A stretch of DNA of 19,410 bases, taken from the NCBI GenBank assembly GCA_038046645.1, contig JBBSVU010000001.1, forward strand, positions 62,848 through 82,257, read 5' to 3'. The stretch is from an archaeon. GTDB taxonomy: Archaea; Iainarchaeota; Iainarchaeia; Iainarchaeales; 0-14-0-20-34-12. Made by a program: the position numbers. Shown piece after piece: positions 6,001 through 12,000 of this stretch. Numbering within the stretch: the stretch's first letter is position 1; every line of letters starts with the position of its first letter.

Positions 6001-9000
6001 TGATAAGAGAATCAAGCTGAAAGAAATAGTCAAAAAAATGGATAAAGAAAGCCTAGAATATAAAGTATTGAACGCGCAGCAGACCTCTTTGAAAATAATT
6101 TTGAATGCCACTTATGGTTCATTAGGGTATGCACGCTTTAAATGGTACTCAAGGGAATGTGCAAGTGCTGTTACTGGATTAAGCAGGCAGTATGCTCAAA
6201 TGGTTGGCGAGGAAGCAGAAAAATCAGGGTTTAAGTGGATATATGGAGACACAGACTCTGCCTTCCTAGAAATTCCAAAAAATAGGACAAAGGATGATGT
6301 AGTTAAATTTGTTGATGGGATAAATAACAAACTGCCAGGAGTCATGAATCTCGAGCTTGAAGGATTCTATAAAAGAGGAATATTTGTCACAAAGAAAGGG
6401 AATGATGAAGCAGCAAAGAAAAAATACGCATTAATGGACGAGAAAGGAAGGCTGAAGATTGTCGGCTTTGAATATGTAAGAAGGGATTGGGCGCGCATTG
6501 CAAAGGATACGCAAAGAAAAGTGATTGAAGCAGTTTTGAAAGAAGGGGATTCTGCAAAAGCCATTGGCATAGTAAAAGATACGCTTGAATATTTGAAATC
6601 TGGAAAGGCAAAAAAAGAGGAATTGGTAATTTACACACAAATAAAGAGAAAGTTGAAGGATTATGAAAGCATTGGGCCGCATGTTGCTGCTGCAAAAAAA
6701 GCAATCCAAAAAGGAAAAGAAATTGAGATAGGTTCTGTGATAGAATATATTGTAACAAAGAATGGGAAAAGCATCAGCGACAGGGCTGAATTGGCTGAAT
6801 TTGTGAAAGAAGGCAATTATGATGCTGATTATTACATTTCACATCAAGTGCTTCCGGCAGTCATTAAAATAATGCAGGAATTGGGGCATAGCGAGGAAGA
6901 CTTAAAACACGGAGGTAAGCAGAAAACCCTTCAGGCATTTTTTGGGCAGGATGTCAAATAAGTATTACTAAATTAATAACTCAAAGATTGAAATTATATA
7001 TTAATAGAAGTTTAACACCTTTGGCGCATAAACTCAGAAATAAAACCCTTTGGGGCAGTTAATCTATATTAACATTAATGAAATGGTGATTTTTTGGATT
7101 CAGACATTGTGAAGAAATACCTAAAGGCCGGGGAAATTTTAAAAGAAACACAGGAAGAAGCAAGAAAGATAATTAAAAGCGAAGCAAAATTGTTGGAAAT
7201 AGCTGAAAGCATAGAAAAATTCATTGAGAAAAAAGGCGGGAAGCCAGCTTTTCCAGTAAATCTTTCATTTAACAATGAAGCAGCGCACCGCACAGCTGAC
7301 ATAAATGATGAATTAACAATAAAAAAAGAGGATGTTTTGAAGGTAGATATTGGGGTGCAAGTTGACGGATATATAGCTGATTCTGCATTTACAGTAAACC
7401 TTTCAGGCGAATGGAAAAAAATGATTAAAGTAAATGAAACTGCTTTGAATGAAGCACTAAAACTTGTGCAGGAAAATGGCGCTGGTTTAGAAATAAAAAA
7501 AATTGGCGAAATAATTGAAAAAACAATTAAAGAGGCGGGATTTAAACCTGTGCAAAATCTTACAGGGCATGGATTGGAAAAATATATGCAGCATGCTCCG
7601 CCAAGCATCCCAAACATAGCAACGAATGATTCAAAAAGATTTGAAGATAACAAGGTTTATGCAATTGAGCCTTTTGTGACAAATGGCTCTGGCTTTGTAA
7701 AAGAAGGGTCTGCCTGCCAGATCTTCATGGCAGATGAAGTAAAGCCAACAAGGGACAGAAATGCACGCAAGATAATGGAATTAATTTTAAAAGAATATGA
7801 AACCTTGCCATTTGCCGAGCGCTGGATTTCAGATAAAATAAAAATGAGTGAATTTGAAAGAAAAATTGCTTTTAGGGAATTGATGCAAAAAAAATGCATC
7901 AGGTCTTATCCAATACTAAAAGATGAGAATGGCTGCATTGTTACGCAGGCAGAAAATTCCTTTTTAATAAATGACGGAAAAGTAATCTTGCTTGTAAAAT
8001 AGATTAATAATTTGTCTTATTTCAATAGTTATATAATCAAAGCCCTCATAGTATAATGGGTGGAAATGAATATAATAGGTTACTACTAATTAACTCATAA
8101 TGACTAGAATATCCTTAGATAAAAAAAATAGAGAGAAGCTATTCAAATTACTAAAAAAACAATATGGCACTCTATCATACTTCAAATTAGCTAAAAAGAT
8201 AGGGGTGCCTTACAAAAGCTTACAAAACTGGATCTATGGGGAACGCCTAATCCCTACAGGAATAATCCCAAACAAGTTACTAAATAAAATAAAAATTGAG
8301 CAGATAAGGGAAAATAATTGGGGGCAAATAAAGGGGGGGCTTATTGGAGGCAAAATTGCCATTAAAAAACTTTTAAGCAAATATTCTAAAAAAGAGTTAA
8401 TTAAATGGAGAAAAAATATTGGCAAGAAAGGTGCAGCAAAAGCAAATAAAACACTTAAAAAATTAAAACATAAAAACCCCGATTATTTTTATATACTGCT
8501 AAGAAAAAAGAAATTTGCAAAAAATTTTCAAAAATTGAGTAAAAAGAAATTGCAAAAAAAGGAGATAATGCTAGACACCAAAAGCATACCTTACAGCCCT
8601 ATTGATATTAAAAAAGAGATTAGATTGCCCACTAAATTAACTCCTGAATTGGCAGAGATTATTGGGGCACATACTGGAGATGGGACACTTTCAACAAAAA
8701 GATATTATTTTTCAATAAGAACTAGCATATTTGAAGAGGAATATTTCACAAAACACGTTTTTCCCCTATATAAACGAACGTTTAACATTAATTTAAAATT
8801 ACTAAAAAGACCACCTATCTGCGGTTTTGAAACAAGTTCAAAAGCAATACATTATTTTAAAAATCAGATATTTGGTCTGCCCATAGGCACCAAAACGCAC
8901 AAAATAGGAGTATCTCCATTAATCTCAGAAAGTAATGATAAAAAAATAATGGGTGCTTTTTTGAGAGGAGTGTTTGACACAGATGGTTGTGTTTATTTCT

Positions 9001-12000
9001 CCAAACATCAAACATATCCAGTATTAAGCATTACTGTCAAATCAAAAAAAGCTATAAAAGGGATGGGATTGCTACTTAAAAAACTAGGATATGATCCACA
9101 TATAAACCTTAAGAGTTATACTGTTTATTTAAATGGGGTACTGAAATTCAAGAAATGGCTTGATGAAATTGGAACAAAAAACCCAAAACATCAAAAAAGA
9201 ATAAATAAAATAAAGGAAAAACTTCCTTGGGCGGAGATCGAAAAAACCTTAAATGAAATTTCAAATATTCAAGCAACCGATGGTTCCGTGGTGTAATGGA
9301 AAACATAGTGGCCTGCGGAGCTACTGACTCGGGTTCGAATCCCGACGGAACCAATATGTAATTAAGTAAGTCAGATCCCAGTGGGGGCAAGCCCCTTTCT
9401 TTTCTTGCGAAGAAAAGAAAGGCCCTTGGGTTCAAAGAAAAGAAACTATTTAATTAGCTTTTAGTCAAGTATGTTATACTAAAGATCAGTTAAGCACGGG
9501 TTGGAGAGTGGCCTAATCCATCGGCTTTAGGGGCCGACGCCTTAGTGGCTTCGCAGGTTCGAATCCTGTCCCGTGCAAAACCATTGCGAAGCAATGGTTG
9601 GGCAGTATGTTAATATCAAGAAAATATTATTCTTTGATAAAACTTTCTTTTTAAGAAAGTTTTGAATCCTGTCCCGTGCACTGCCAACCGAAGGTTGGCA
9701 CTGAACAGCATAAGTAATATTATGCAAAATATTATTCTTTGATAAAACTTTCTTTCTAAGAAAGTTTTGAAGACTGTCCCGTGCAAACCCCTTTCTTTTC
9801 TTAGAAAGAAAAGAAAGGCCTTTTGGTTCAAAGAAAAGAACTAACTAAAAAGAATAATTTAAAGAAAACTGATAAGATAACCTAGCTTTTTTCCTTTGAA
9901 ATAGTAATAATTACCACTCCAACTAATGCAAGTAAAATACCTAAGTATTGCACCAGAGCAAGAACCTCTGCAAATAAAATAAAGGAACCTATTGCAGTTA
10001 TTATTGGTGCAAATACCTCAATTAACGAACCAAGTATGGCTTTTATCCTTTTTAATGATTCATAATAAAACAGGTACGGCACTAATGTGCCTGTTACAAC
10101 AATGCCAAACAAAAGCAGGAAATCATTAAAACTTATTTGGAATAGCTCAGTGACATTTGAGAATAACAATAAAGGAATCAGAAAAATCGTCCCTGAAATA
10201 ATCCTTACTGTGAGTATGGTCAATGAAGATAAAGATTTTGTCAAATAACGGCCTAAAACAGTGCAAATAGCAAAACTAAAACAAGAAAATAAAGACAAAA
10301 GTATTCCTTGCACAGTTATATTAAAATCAGCATTCCCTAGGCCCATCATCAAGATAGCAATTAGGATTAGGCAAGTGGCAAATAACTCTTTTTTATTAAT
10401 GGTTTCCTTTAGGAAAATCCAGCCCAAAAGCAAAACAAAGATAGGCTGCATCTGCACTATTGTAGTAGACAGGGTAGGGCCAATAAATCCAATTGCATAA
10501 ATAAAAGACAGCCAACCCAAAATTATCCCAAAAAATCCTACTGAAATAGCCAGCAACTTTACCTTAGGTGAAACTTTAGAAAATTCACTAACCTTTTTAG
10601 CATGAACAAATAGGGGAAGAATAAACAAAAAAGACATTAGATAAACAGCAAAGGATAAGGTAATTGGGGAAAATTTGTGGGATAAAAATTTTAAGATTAA
10701 GGAATATGATCCAAAGCCAAGGCTTGCTAATAGCATTAGCAGTATTCCCTTAGTCCTTTCATCCATAGTAACTTCATCAGCAAAGAGATTAATATGACTT
10801 TCCTGCTTGTAAAATAGCAGGGGCTATGCACAAACCAAATACCCCTAAAAATCGACAATCAAGAAGTTATTAAAAAGTTATGAGATAGATAATAATTAAG
10901 ATTCTCTTTTCTTTTACAAACCTATTTTTTCTTTTCTCTTAGAAAGAGAAAAGAAAAAACGGTTGGGGAGATAGTATAGCCTGGCAGTACTTAACCTTGG
11001 GGTGGTTAAAACCTGGGTCCGAATCCCAGTCTTCCCAAACCTTTTCTCATTAAGAAAATAAAATAAGCATGCAATAAAAAAGTCATTAATTTACCATTAG
11101 TCCATATTGCACAATTCTTGCTTCAAATAGGTTTTTAAATATTAGTGGCAAATATTCTGCATAGGTGATCAAAAATGGTATTCGATCTTATGTACGGTTG
11201 CGGTGCTTGCGGAGACGACGATGATTTTGACTCTGATGAAGACTTTGAGGATGAAGAGGAAGAAGAAGATAGTGATGAGGACTTTGAAGCAGAAGAAGGG
11301 GAAAATTACTAACTTTTAACATTCTAATTCCTTTTTATTTTTTTCTTATTCTTATTTTTCATATCCCCCATTATTTTTATAATTTGAACTCAGCATGGCT
11401 GCGGTAGTACAATGGCTAGTATCTAGGGCTGTGGACCCTTGGAACCGAGTTCGATTCTCGGCCGCGGCCTTTCTACTTAGGCTGTAGAAGAAGTTCTTTC
11501 CTCATCAGCAGGCTTAGCAGATAATGCCCTTCTTGCAGCTGCTGCATTCAATAATAATGCCCTGTTGTATCTATGCCTGCGCCGCAACAATCTCTTATCA
11601 TGCACCCCAACTTCCCTTTTATGCTTCCTTGCCTTAGCCCTTAATTCGTTAAATTCTTTCTCATAATCTGAAATCATTTCCTCAAAACCATGTGCTTCCC
11701 TTAGCAATTGCTTCTTCCTGCTTTGAAGACCTGATATTTTATATGCAATGCTGGCTTTAGCTATGGGTTTAAATCTTACTGCTGCCAAATCCAAACGTTG
11801 TTGCTGCAAAGCTACTAATTTTCTATTTACTGAAGCAAGCTCGCTCTTTATTCTTGAATAAACATCATAGACTGAAGCAACTCTTGATTTTACCTTATCA
11901 GTACCTTGTTCTTGCATCAGTCTTTCCAATTCTCCTTGATAGTGCACTTTCTGCCATTTATGGTAGCTTCTCCAGGTTTTATCCCAAACGTTAGCGGAAA

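Follow-up and report, generated by a model that had tools for sequence, protein, structure and literature searches.

A stretch of about 1.3 kb (8068-9375) in the chromosome of an archaeon of the Iainarchaeales is probably a mobile cassette, composed of a promoter, a homing endonuclease gene and a rescue tRNA-Arg(GCG), that lies inside an old tRNA-Arg(GCG) gene. All positions refer to the window, the whole 19,410-nt stretch of DNA analyzed here (contig JBBSVU010000001.1, positions 62,848 to 82,257, forward strand). On this reading, a selfish gene of a tiny groundwater archaeon would invade an essential gene and the host would survive through a spare tRNA.

An insert replaces the anticodon arm of the resident tRNA-Arg(GCG)

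We compared the locus with G001, a genome of the same genus whose flanking sequences are 86-94% identical to the window. The BLAST alignment reaches position 8059 and restarts at 9376. At the position of 8060-9375, G001 has 41 nt, which complete an intact tRNA-Arg(GCG). In the window, this resident gene is broken and an insert of ~1.3 kb stands in for its anticodon arm. The locus comprises the following features.

8042-8067 (+), 5' stub of the resident tRNA-Arg(GCG): acceptor 5' strand and D-arm, tRNA positions ~1-26; 20/26 nt identical to the start of the G001 gene
8068-8099 (+), left end of the insert, with a TATA-like box at 8070-8077, 23-30 nt before the ATG (sequence inspection)
8100-9296 (+), free-standing endonuclease gene, 398 aa (P0001), HTH-like and double-LAGLIDADG
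9281-9354 (+), complete tRNA-Arg(GCG) carried by the cassette (ARAGORN; Rfam 9282-9353, 61.6 bits)
9355-9375 (+), spacer that closes the insert on its right, without G001 counterpart
9376-9389 (+), 3' stub of the resident tRNA-Arg(GCG), with the last part of the T-loop, the 3' strands of T-stem and acceptor stem, and the discriminator; all 14 nt match the 3' end of the G001 gene
9390-9449 (+), native hairpin repeat downstream, outside the insert; 94% identical to G001
9494-9577 (+), tRNA-Leu(TAG), native neighbour (ARAGORN, Rfam); all 87 nt across the gene shared with G001

The first 7 nt of the 5' stub (from 8042) pair with 9382-9388 at 7/7 positions, one G-U included, and the old variable loop may survive as 9373-9376. 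Relative to other loci, the 3' stub is short by ~12 nt of T-arm. Since the anticodon arm could not be regenerated from the stubs, the change ran from an intact to a broken gene.

As reported in a preliminary description of this DNA, the open reading frame overlaps tRNA-Arg(GCG) by 16 nt. The 5' end of the tRNA supplies these final 16 nt, the last five codons and the stop being tRNA sequence, and the TAA stop codon falls in the D-loop. The overlapped tRNA lies inside the stretch missing from G001, is identical to the resident-type G001 gene at 42/73 positions and differs from it in the acceptor stem. It is a different copy that arrived with the insert, and the sole tRNA-Arg(GCG) found in the assembly (single pattern match in G000). 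The preliminary description had noted, as a difficulty for plain homing, a tRNA gene that is itself part of the indel; at the Arg locus this is resolved, since the resident tRNA is broken and the overlapped one came with the insert. Its claim that the endonuclease genes park beside tRNA genes without breaking them fails here, where 26-nt 5' and 14-nt 3' stubs remain, and fits the Ala-CGC paralogue described below.

We found no recombinase within the indel, whose contents are one ORF and one tRNA. A Met-aminopeptidase gene lies upstream. The distance of the TATA-like box from the ATG suggests that the cassette has its own putative promoter, with a short or absent leader.

P0001 resembles active archaeal LAGLIDADG enzymes

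P0001 has a three-helix HTH-like region (residues ~8-46), a long helical linker, a LAGLIDADG core of two domains (~175-360) and helices at the C-terminus. It matches Pfam LAGLIDADG_3 above the family cut-off (E=8.1e-9), and its HTH is sub-threshold in Pfam. The top Foldseek matches of its AlphaFold2 model (mean pLDDT 89.7) are 7qsu, also matched by profile search (E=2.8e-15), 2dch, 1dq3 and I-DmoI (2vs7), which are LAGLIDADG enzymes of archaeal inteins or introns. The invariance of D194, G195, D295 and G296 described earlier was reproduced in a different alignment of 21 family sequences, all of which keep the catalytic D194 and D295. With both motif Asp conserved, a confident model and working archaeal nucleases as its nearest structures, P0001 looks enzymatically active.

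The same architecture is found in other genomes

In four other genomes, one locus each (L048, L050, L052 and L053) carries a 24-nt 5' stub with a TATA box immediately after it; 24-44 nt 3' of the cassette tRNA comes a second stub, composed of T-arm and acceptor. At all four, the stubs pair 7/7, the junctions are those of the window, and the place after the 5' stub is taken by an AT-rich box equivalent to that of the window. Two upstream gene contexts occur, NDK (L048 and L053) and a ~530-aa ORF (L050 and L052), both unlike that of the window. The spacers after the cassette tRNA (24-44 nt, 28-68% identical) are the least conserved part, and the T-stem of the L052 stub is mismatched by eye. These best cases beyond the window all belong to one sub-clade, so part of the recurrence may reflect inheritance and not independent events. 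Stubs were absent from L047, L049, L051 and G011, though their endonuclease genes are intact, and L055 has a 5' stub without a 3' stub; clear paired stubs are missing from 6 of the 11 Arg-GCG clade loci.

Between L050 and L053, the stubs are identical at 23/26 and 13/13 positions; identity is 66% in the endonuclease DNA, 62% in the cassette tRNA and 28-50% in the spacers. Stubs that are conserved above the cassette yet decaying fit repeated re-invasion of functional tRNA genes. We found the 24-nt 5' sequence in 80 metagenome loci, 74 of them intact tRNA-Arg genes (17 called GCG) and one endonuclease-occupied. L219 exactly matches both L048 stubs (24 and 25 nt, by eye), and its intervening stretch is an anticodon arm. 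In the Arg-TCG clade, L083 has one 5' stub and two T-arm stubs, and an endonuclease gene of G012 at tRNA-Leu(TAG) is accompanied by a tRNA-Leu 3' stub ~75 nt downstream. Perfect T-arm hairpins lie downstream of 3/48 linked tRNAs; the background is 1 in 503,368 nt.

The empty alleles had been expected to reveal the natural targets directly. They allow the sites to be narrowed, but these cannot simply be read off. Anticodon stems are highly variable among intact resident-type genes, so that the replaced segment holds no obvious conserved 20-bp target, and the conserved 24-nt 5' part is common to tRNA-Arg genes with four anticodons. Cassette tRNAs are not set apart from endonuclease-free tRNA-Arg(GCG) genes by any difference that holds throughout, and the anticodon stem-loop of the G011 cassette tRNA is ordinary.

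Endonuclease clades follow tRNA identity

Our own profile search of this genome detected seven free-standing paralogues at E<=4e-12. With filters off, two further ORFs of free-standing size (299 and 355 aa; E 3e-8 and 3e-5) and a 665-aa ORF (E 1.8e-11) appeared. Given the two found only unfiltered, the previous count of eight free-standing genes is plausible, though inexact. The 3' end lies in a tRNA or <=25 nt from one for 5/7 paralogues versus 6/710 other ORFs of at least 200 aa (Fisher p=6e-9), in agreement with the five genes said to abut or overlap a tRNA; the positions quoted for the Ala-CGC (C24), Gly-CCC (C17) and Gly-TCC (C6) cases were reproduced. The reported association across the order also held, with a tRNA at the gene 3' end in 8, on the 5' side in 1 and at neither in 2 of the best 11 loci from relatives. 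In public DPANN genomes, ARAGORN placed a tRNA <=80 nt from the 3' end at 54/80 loci. The gene is patchily distributed (20/31 genomes). Our tree contains an Arg-GCG clade (11 rows, support 99), a His-GTG clade (18 rows, support 100) and a distinct Arg-TCG clade, and supports the view that these free-standing, tRNA-tied LAGLIDADG genes with intact motifs group by tRNA identity, as had been proposed.

G001 lacks the endonuclease gene between the same neighbours at all three loci compared (Arg, Ala and Gly-CCC), again as described earlier. At the Ala-CGC paralogue, the G001 tRNA is 1 nt different with the same 14 nt upstream, and the endonuclease gene is the only indel; immunity there could not come from the tRNA body, which is unchanged with or without the endonuclease. 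The Gly-CCC paralogue has a chimeric tRNA, its D-arm side unlike G001 and the remainder the same; the left junction is non-homologous and ~318 nt of G001 sequence are lost. Most His-GTG loci are stubless, and tRNA-His is kept directly before hisS. This clade has a D-arm-like motif ahead of the TATA box which, lacking acceptor strand and 3' stub, may be a cassette or promoter element and not a relic.

A second paralogue lies in the window. It is 27% identical to P0001 and clusters with L105 (linked to Thr-GGT) in a Thr-linked clade. It overlaps the 3' end of tRNA-Thr(GGT) tail to tail, as previously noted.

13601-14602 (-), second paralogue, 333 aa; Pfam LAGLIDADG_3 E=1.8e-6, above cut-off
13533 to about 13620 (+), tRNA-Thr(GGT) with a 14-nt intron (Rfam 58.9 bits; ARAGORN, introns allowed)
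14700-14719 (-), uncertain candidate for a short stub of the tRNA-Thr 5' end, upstream of the paralogue's promoter

The 7-nt acceptor strand of this candidate is that of tRNA-Thr and ~12/15 nt match by eye; 5 other Thr-linked loci showed nothing equivalent.

Origin of the cassette

Building on the observed architecture, the intact-to-broken polarity, the recurrent junctions, the intact catalytic core and the linkage of clades to tRNAs, we propose that the endonuclease would cut an intact resident-type tRNA-Arg(GCG) gene somewhere between D-arm and variable loop. The break would be repaired off the occupied allele, the conserved tRNA ends serving as homology, to which neighbouring genes would add between close relatives. 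The cassette tRNA, with another acceptor stem, D-arm and anticodon stem, would escape cutting and assume the function. As a consequence of this takeover, the host would be unable to drop the cassette, whose loss would cost it its tRNA-Arg(GCG).

The preliminary description had instead seen a gene that homes harmlessly to the edge of tRNA genes, the adjacent tRNA being the resident. The Ala-CGC paralogue and the stubless His-GTG loci fit that account, which we consider very improbable here: for 8042-9389 it is refuted by a resident tRNA in two pieces and a foreign tRNA beside the gene, and the resident gene is likewise split in L048, L050, L052, L053 and L083. The least probable explanation is a domesticated WhiA-like (HTH and LAGLIDADG) DNA-binding regulator of the adjacent tRNA gene. 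It would account for the HTH-like N-terminal domain and the fixed position beside a tRNA, and WhiA is found at rank 46 among the Foldseek matches; against it stand the retention of both catalytic Asp throughout the alignment, the missing gene in the sister genome at three loci, the patchy occurrence and a location within a destroyed gene.

Could the stubs be selected, as a tRNA-like clamp that encloses the transcript of endonuclease and tRNA (for instance a processing handle for RNase P or RNase Z) or as part of the promoter of a stable, vertically inherited cassette? Their conservation exceeds that of the spacers, of the endonuclease DNA and even of the cassette tRNA, which is the working copy; acceptor pairing is kept in five loci, the TATA box starts exactly at the end of the 5' stub, and the His-GTG clade has a related motif. 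We nevertheless regard this as unlikely, with part of the T-arm gone from the window copy, a mismatched T-stem in L052, and intact endonuclease genes at the loci devoid of stubs, or of the 3' stub in L055. Moreover, functional tRNA-Arg genes share the sequence of the 5' stub as their own 5' part, so that recent derivation accounts for its conservation. It is also decidedly unlikely that another agent (illegitimate recombination, or a transposase or integrase supplied in trans) placed the cassette, with the LAGLIDADG protein as passenger or ex-nuclease. Archaeal tRNA genes are classic integration sites, the Gly-CCC left junction would suit such an event, and the abstract on Caldiarchaeum reports that a recombinase element separates a 5' tRNA-Thr fragment from an intact tRNA-Thr 1.8 kb further downstream (PMC3293823). 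In the window, however, the indel is free of recombinase genes, and the stubs have another acceptor stem than the cassette tRNA and so are not its att-like duplicates. Across 54/80 loci, the tRNA has no constant partner other than the endonuclease, whose catalytic residues do not vary. A homing cassette that carries its own rescue tRNA remains our preferred reading.

Comparison with known systems

The principle is already known from T4 SegB and fungal mitochondrial mORFs; our literature search returned no account that extends it to LAGLIDADG genes in archaeal tRNA genes. According to its description, SegB is a free-standing GIY-YIG homing endonuclease of the T4 tRNA gene cluster whose recognition site takes in conserved tRNA sequence, the T-psi-C stem-loop, and which spreads its own gene and surrounding tRNA genes into genomes without SegB (PMC2330249). 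Both are free-standing endonuclease genes amid tRNA genes. SegB is a single phage gene, described there without a resident tRNA split into two stubs (PMC2330249), whereas the cassette belongs to a LAGLIDADG radiation on archaeal chromosomes with one tRNA identity per clade.

According to the report on mORFs, these make gene hybrids in Allomyces (atp6) and Glomus (atp6, atp9, cox2 and nad3) (PMC3630166). There too, a free-standing LAGLIDADG (or GIY-YIG) ORF in an essential gene supplies a foreign spare part, the native part is pushed downstream and a close relative shows the empty allele. The mORF hosts, as described, are protein-coding genes of which just the C-terminal end is replaced, often with the ORF as an in-frame fusion (PMC3630166). 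In contrast, the cassette has a tRNA host gene in DPANN chromosomes, brings a whole new tRNA and leaves both old ends.

For Caldiarchaeum subterraneum, the abstract describes an insertion at tRNA-Thr(GGU), polymorphic in a population, in which a 5' tRNA fragment is followed by a ~1.8-kb element and by an intact tRNA with the same identity; it differs in having no homing endonuclease, and the abstract describes no 3' stub (PMC3293823).

The closest sequences and folds are archaeal intron and intein enzymes (I-DmoI, I-Tsp061I, PI-PfuI and the TliVMA intein endonuclease domain), monomeric two-motif proteins like P0001. P0001 adds an N-terminal HTH-like domain and a helical linker. Those enzymes sit in elements spliced at the RNA or protein level, whereas the P0001 gene is free-standing with its own putative promoter; the host gene is rescued by splicing in their case and by a second copy at the cassette. 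Synthetic "cleave and rescue" gene drives, which are engineered, Cas9-based and used in insects, offer an analogy: they combine a nuclease that knocks out the resident copy of an essential gene with a cleavage-resistant rescue copy on the element.

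The tRNA-Arg(GCG) gene of the window is interrupted by an endonuclease cassette

The two endonuclease genes of the window, the tRNA genes they adjoin, and the insert that carries the first of them are listed below.

Features of the endonuclease loci in the window
8100-9296, + strand: endonuclease gene, 398 aa, ATG start, TATA-like box upstream
9281-9354 (ARAGORN) or 9282-9353 (Rfam, 61.6 bits), + strand: tRNA-Arg(GCG)
Insert, + strand, from left to right: TATA-like box (8070-8077), ATG at 8100 with the endonuclease gene, complete tRNA-Arg(GCG), spacer of ~20 nt
13601-14602, - strand: second paralogue, 333 aa, tail to tail over the 3′ end of tRNA-Thr(GGT)
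13533-13619, + strand: intron-bearing tRNA-Thr(GGT)

In the sister genome G001, from the same genus, the flanks of the first locus match the window at 86-94% on both sides, while window positions 8060-9375 are absent. At the position of the insert, 41 nt in G001 make up the rest of an intact tRNA-Arg(GCG), whose acceptor stem is unlike that of the cassette tRNA. The first 26 nt of this G001-type gene are found in the window at 8042-8067 (5′ stub, 20/26 identical) and its last 14 nt at 9376-9389 (3′ stub, 14/14 identical), and the acceptor strands of the two stubs pair at 7/7 positions, one G-U counted. The tRNA of the cassette lies inside the indel and is identical to the G001 tRNA-Arg(GCG) at 42 of 73 nt.

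The insert takes the place of the middle of the old gene. The stubs together lack tRNA positions ~27-43, and the window copy additionally lacks ~12 nt of the T-arm. Because the stubs contain no sequence from which an anticodon arm could be restored, the change ran from an intact to a broken gene, and splicing could not restore the tRNA. According to the preliminary description, the endonuclease genes form a family of mobile, tRNA-targeted genes that park at the edge of a tRNA gene without breaking it. Our results agree with such a family; the tRNA, however, is not unbroken here, since the resident gene lies in two stubs around the insert. As the cassette brings its own replacement, the tRNA belongs to the indel at this locus. 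This replacement is the only tRNA-Arg(GCG) found in the 89%-complete assembly of the window's own genome, G000 (1.17 Mb, 25 contigs, 35% G+C).

The stubs were not detected by Rfam at E ≤ 10, as they are too short. A DNA query with the G001 tRNA against 31 relatives at E ≤ 1e-6 retrieved only G001 and G012, another relative of the order; this threshold being too strict, a pattern search was used instead. Eighteen public sequencing runs contain part of the stretch, with no RNA run listed among them. Contigs of 4 runs were compared with positions 7700-9700, and in several of these runs parts of the occupied allele matched with 0 differences; no contig bridged an empty allele and no piece covered the whole stretch.

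The endonuclease gene is free-standing, as it has its own start, no intein splicing blocks, and no intron that would restore a host gene. Its final 16 nt are the 5′ end of the tRNA, given that the ORF ends at 9296 and the tRNA starts at 9281. The ORF closes with codons for G-S-V-V, and its TAA stop codon coincides with the D-loop TAA of tRNA-Arg(GCG).

The protein resembles archaeal LAGLIDADG homing endonucleases

The proteins of the two genes, P0001 (8100-9296) and P0002 (13601-14602), share 27% identity and each exceeds the Pfam threshold for LAGLIDADG_3 (36.1 bits for P0001; cut-off 22.5). In P0001, Pfam finds the LAGLIDADG domain alone above threshold, and its HTH matches in the N-terminal domain are all sub-threshold (HTH_26, 0.0077; HTH_Tnp_1, 0.0037). 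We aligned P0001 with 19 database homologues and P0002 (21 sequences) and found 13 invariant columns, including G193-D194-G195 and D293-T294-D295-G296. The catalytic residues D194 (in GDG) and D295 (in DTDG), at the ends of the two LAGLIDADG helices, are invariant in 21/21 sequences.

An AlphaFold2 model of P0001 built on this alignment (mean pLDDT 89.7, pTM 0.70) contains a three-helix HTH-like bundle (~8-46), two long linker helices (82-147), and a two-domain alpha/beta core (~175-360, two beta-sheet domains) followed by two C-terminal helices. By profile and fold, the nearest solved proteins are archaeal intein and intron LAGLIDADG nucleases: the TliVMA intein (7qsu; profile match E = 2.8e-15), PI-PfuI (1dq3), I-Tsp061I (2dch), and I-DmoI, with a Foldseek probability of 1.00 to all four. 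In its motifs, profile, fold, and occupied and empty alleles, P0001 fits a monomeric two-motif LAGLIDADG homing endonuclease; its catalytic core is intact, and the protein is predicted to make site-specific double-strand cuts in a long target.

The end of the protein shows a further relation to tRNA. In G011, another relative, the last ~30 residues of the endonuclease ORF, from "LPW" onward, are the translation of the whole tRNA (L135, 1465-1555). P0001 and its relatives conserve "LPW" ~20 residues from the C-terminus, within a helix that is modelled with confidence, and in the window (9224-9296 region) a tRNA-5′-like stretch coding for it lies ~60 nt ahead of the present tRNA. From the G011 tail and the conserved "LPW", we speculate that part of the protein tail descends from an older tRNA 5′ end. 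At another locus, L046 (3600-3730), the ORF ends inside a tRNA-Arg(GCG) missed by ARAGORN, whose D-loop seems to hold an insertion of ~45 nt.

The same architecture recurs at other Arg-GCG loci

Four other loci (L048, L050, L052, and L053) have a 24-nt tRNA 5′ stub with 1-4 mismatches from one another's consensus. It ends exactly at the start of an AT-rich TATA box, ~30 nt before the ATG; a T-arm and acceptor stub follows 24-44 nt beyond the cassette tRNA, and the stubs pair 7/7. L055 has the 5′ stub alone, L049 and L051 have what by eye are decayed look-alikes, and no stubs were seen at L047 and in G011. We regard the architecture of the cassette, its polarity, and its recurrence as demonstrated, as we do the inclusion of the promoter-like box in the cassette.

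The genes around the cassettes vary. The window has a Met-aminopeptidase gene upstream and tRNA-Leu downstream; the upstream neighbour is NDK in L048 and L053 and a ~530-aa ORF in L050 and L052, and RFC, EF-1-beta, RadA, RPA, or TrkH are neighbours at other loci. The common denominator is therefore the tRNA gene and not its neighbours.

We found the 24-nt 5′ sequence in at least 121 stretches of metagenome contigs. Among the matches listed, 80 were examined, and 74 of these were intact tRNA-Arg genes (39 CCT, 17 GCG, 13 TCT, and 5 CCG); the others were an intron-bearing GCG gene miscalled as Phe, four stretches too short to judge, and one occupied by an endonuclease gene. Intact GCG genes of this set agree with the stubs. 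By eye, one of them, L219, reproduces the L048 stubs exactly (24 nt 5′ and 25 nt 3′), and between these ends it has position 26, the anticodon arm, and part of the variable loop. From the comparison of L219 with the L048 stubs, the left junction falls behind about position 26 and the right one ahead of about position 44 at every one of these loci. An intron just 3′ of the anticodon is present in some intact resident-type tRNA-Arg(GCG) genes (metagenome loci L160, L182, L196, and L220); such introns would give immunity if the target of the endonuclease extends across the anticodon loop.

Endonuclease genes are linked to tRNA genes and to tRNA identity

At E ≤ 4e-12, a profile built from the paralogues detected 7 free-standing copies in G000 and, besides these, six long proteins that carry inteins; with filters off, two further ORFs of free-standing size and a 665-aa ORF appeared with weaker E-values. 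Five of the 7 free-standing copies end inside a tRNA or within 20 nt of one, compared with 6 of 710 other ORFs of at least 200 aa (Fisher p = 6e-9). Matches are present in 20 of 31 genomes of the order, and at the 11 best loci outside G000 the tRNA is at the 3′ end of the gene in 8, on the 5′ side in 1, and absent in 2. Public DPANN genomes supplied a further 80 loci, and in 54 of them ARAGORN places a tRNA no more than 80 nt from the 3′ end; the 26 scored "none" include some with intron-bearing tRNAs that ARAGORN missed (by eye, e.g., L046, L054, and L071). The relatives of G000 are labelled Woesearchaeota, Nanoarchaeota, Pacearchaeota, and Iainarchaeum, all of them DPANN archaea. These counts bear out the tie between endonuclease and tRNA genes proposed earlier, and the proposal that the sister species has the same neighbours without the endonuclease gene is true of G001 at three loci.

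A FastTree phylogeny of 87 proteins contains three well-supported clades.

Endonuclease clades in the tree of 87 proteins
Arg-GCG: 11 rows, support 99, contains the window gene
His-GTG: 18 rows, support 100, sister of the Arg-GCG clade
Arg-TCG: 10 rows, support 99

The tRNA label changes 26 times on this tree, compared with a minimum of 37 in 200 shuffles, a comparison that is descriptive only, because relatives have labels in common; ARAGORN anticodons of intron-bearing predictions are, in addition, unreliable. As judged from the tree, we take the link between endonuclease clade and tRNA identity to be established.

The state of the tRNA differs among loci. L083, of the Arg-TCG clade, carries a 5′ stub that directly adjoins the ATG, and beyond its tRNA lie two T-arm stubs. 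In G012 (L141, contig C6, 1469-2760), the endonuclease gene is flanked by an intact resident-type tRNA-Arg(GCG) on one side and an intron-bearing tRNA-Leu(TAG) on the other, with a tRNA-Leu 3′ stub ~75 nt further downstream, so that the same Arg-Leu tRNA pair was invaded at a different member than in the window. Perfect T-arm hairpins occur 3′ of 3 of 48 linked tRNAs (background, 1 in 503,368 nt). Compared with its G001 counterpart, the tRNA at the Gly-CCC paralogue is a chimera: 28 alignment columns precede the anticodon stem and contain 8 differences, and the 47 columns beyond it contain 3 (one overhanging end column is included in each count). It has a new G-U pair in the acceptor stem, and the breakpoint is again near position 26/27. 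The Ala-CGC paralogue reads into a tRNA that, with 14 nt upstream, is the same as in G001, and no stubs are present at this locus. The His-GTG clade adjoins the tRNA-His-hisS pair on its upstream side, with a D-arm-like motif before the TATA box and no 3′ stub at its loci. For the Thr-GGT paralogue, the only stub candidate is 8-15 nt at 14700-14719, and no comparable stub was found in 5 other Thr-linked loci. At the Gly-TCC locus (contig C6 of G000), synteny with G001 ends just past the tRNA, and no empty allele can be read. Because the Arg, Gly-CCC, Ala-CGC, and His-GTG loci differ in this way, we consider the family heterogeneous, with whole-tRNA replacement, 5′-part replacement, and simple upstream lodging all represented.

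Promoter element, repeats, and other features of tRNA flanks

The conserved element TTCAGGGGAAATCTACTCTTCCAAA (~25 nt) stands directly before the TATA box at 17 places in G000, including 14663-14683(-), and precedes four endonuclease paralogues, TnpB-like ORFs, intein-bearing genes, and a radA-like ORF. As a cassette border it was rejected, since its 17 places include genes other than endonuclease genes; it looks like a strong promoter element shared within this organism. Relatives have variants of this element of their own. Pyrimidine/purine-rich inverted repeats, CTTTCTTTTCTT...AAGAAAAGAAAG, lie 3′ of the tRNA locus (9390-9449) and are also found beside other tRNAs and endonuclease genes.

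A 264-aa ORF at 16132-16926(+), which matches no Pfam family, runs tail to tail over an intron-bearing tRNA at 16908-17020(-) (Rfam 52.9 bits; Ala-GGC according to ARAGORN). In the ESM Atlas it gave weak leads, below the bar (TM 0.37-0.49), to PD-(D/E)XK-type nucleases such as CoiA, McrC, and DpnII. It could represent another type of nuclease gene lodged at a tRNA.

In G001 (L023, contig C41, ~6380-6590), the last 17 nt of tRNA-Leu(TAG) are repeated twice more downstream, the final copy with two changes, and two hairpin-bearing inserts of ~65 nt each lie between the copies; the window (9494-9620) has one copy. This pattern suggests serial small insertions at the tRNA-Leu 3′ end in G001. Two further stretches are found in one genome of the pair: ~1.7 kb after tRNA-Ala(CGC) in G000 (L029, contig C24, ~3101-4826) and 735 nt with a lipoprotein-like ORF after tRNA-Gly(CCC) in G001 (L040, contig C6, 12591-13326). 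The flanks of tRNA genes seem to be hot spots for indels in general in these two genomes. The window also has a gap of ~670 nt between tRNA-His (11397-11470) and hisS (12139-13416); at many DPANN loci (L058-L072) this gap is 10-25 nt, and the His-GTG endonuclease clade lies just upstream of the pair.

Possible mechanism and alternative explanations

We propose that the endonuclease would cut a resident-type tRNA gene between D-arm and variable loop, and that repair would copy in the cassette with the tRNA ends as homology. The cassette tRNA could evade cleavage by a different D-arm, acceptor stem, or anticodon stem, and the host would come to depend on the cassette. Two observations are difficult for this model: anticodon stems vary among intact targets, and the conserved D-arm is common to all Arg isoacceptors. 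Cassette tRNA-Arg(GCG) genes were not found to differ from endonuclease-free ones by any universal feature that could account for immunity. If the endonuclease gene and the tRNA are co-transcribed, RNase P would have to cut the mRNA 16 nt before the stop codon.

Other kinds of element were considered for the window. An endonuclease encoded in a BHB intron (I-DmoI type) was rejected, as the stubs lack positions ~27-43 and the exons would not give a functional RNA. The indel consists of one LAGLIDADG ORF and one tRNA with no integrase or recombinase, which argues against an integrase-type element at a tRNA gene, and the stubs are not att direct repeats, because their acceptor stem differs from that of the cassette tRNA. 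A domesticated regulator of the WhiA kind was discarded in view of the retained Asp residues, the lack of the gene in the sister genome, and the spread over 20 of 31 genomes of the order.

The conservation of the stubs can be read in two ways. Pairwise identity is 69-88% for 5′ stubs and 69-100% for 3′ stubs, compared with 48-78% for endonuclease DNA, 58-86% for cassette tRNAs, and 28-75% for spacers; between L050 and L053, 36 of 39 stub positions are identical while endonuclease DNA is at 66%. That stubs are better conserved than endonuclease DNA and spacers is what selection to maintain them would give, and we keep this as a rival explanation. However, the stubs are found in every stage of decay, and the conserved 5′ sequence is the ordinary 5′ part of functional tRNA-Arg genes. 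For these reasons we prefer ongoing homing, in which diverged cassettes would repeatedly have entered tRNA genes that were still functional.

Significance and relation to known systems

Homing endonucleases are usually rendered harmless by residing inside self-splicing introns or inteins. The LAGLIDADG family described here would enter an essential, unsplittable RNA gene by bringing a replacement, a strategy that would make the host depend on the invader and exchange tRNA alleles between lineages; it suggests that horizontal tRNA gene replacement is routine in DPANN archaea. The G001-type tRNA-Arg(GCG) gene offers a concrete, testable target for a natural long-site nuclease. The origin of disrupted archaeal tRNA genes has long been debated, and endonuclease cassettes are a candidate selective agent for them.

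A wider reading, which we consider possible but rather unlikely, joins these observations: a large natural family of drives that cut a tRNA gene and bring a spare would be active across DPANN archaea, each clade retargeted to a single tRNA identity, and would be a main selective force behind their odd tRNA genes (introns at many positions, hairpin inserts, and split and chimeric genes). Attacks would be directed at the region of the D-arm and anticodon arm, and would favour such genes, as a target interrupted in any way is immune. What remains of the old tRNA may serve again, its ends providing homology arms and also a tRNA-like clamp in the processing of the endonuclease transcript. The same reading would yield a catalogue of long-site nucleases whose targets are deducible from pairs of stubs and intact genes.

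Several related systems have been described. SegB of phage T4 is a GIY-YIG endonuclease whose free-standing gene lies among clustered tRNA genes; it recognises T-arm sequence and spreads neighbouring tRNA genes (PMC2330249). Caldiarchaeum has a recombinase element with a tRNA-Thr 5′ fragment (PMC3293823), and LAGLIDADG genes are already known in group I introns of DPANN rRNA genes. In literature seen mostly as abstracts and in openly accessible journals, we found no description of LAGLIDADG cassettes that replace archaeal tRNA genes; accounts at this level of homing endonucleases at DPANN/Woesearchaeota tRNA genes and of mobile elements at split tRNAs likewise held no prior description of such cassettes. 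Fungal mitochondrial mORFs are LAGLIDADG or GIY-YIG ORFs in atp6, atp9, cox2, and nad3 that supply a foreign gene end, while the native end remains downstream (PMC3630166). The window cassette is like them in combining an endonuclease ORF, a foreign functional replacement, a displaced native remnant, and an empty allele in a relative. It differs in that its host is a tRNA gene whose middle is replaced, the replacement being a whole tRNA and the native stubs two, whereas mORFs enter protein genes and replace the 3′ end, often in frame with the ORF. By this comparison, the window element would belong to a known kind, the spare-part homing endonuclease cassettes, and its tRNA version in archaea would be new.
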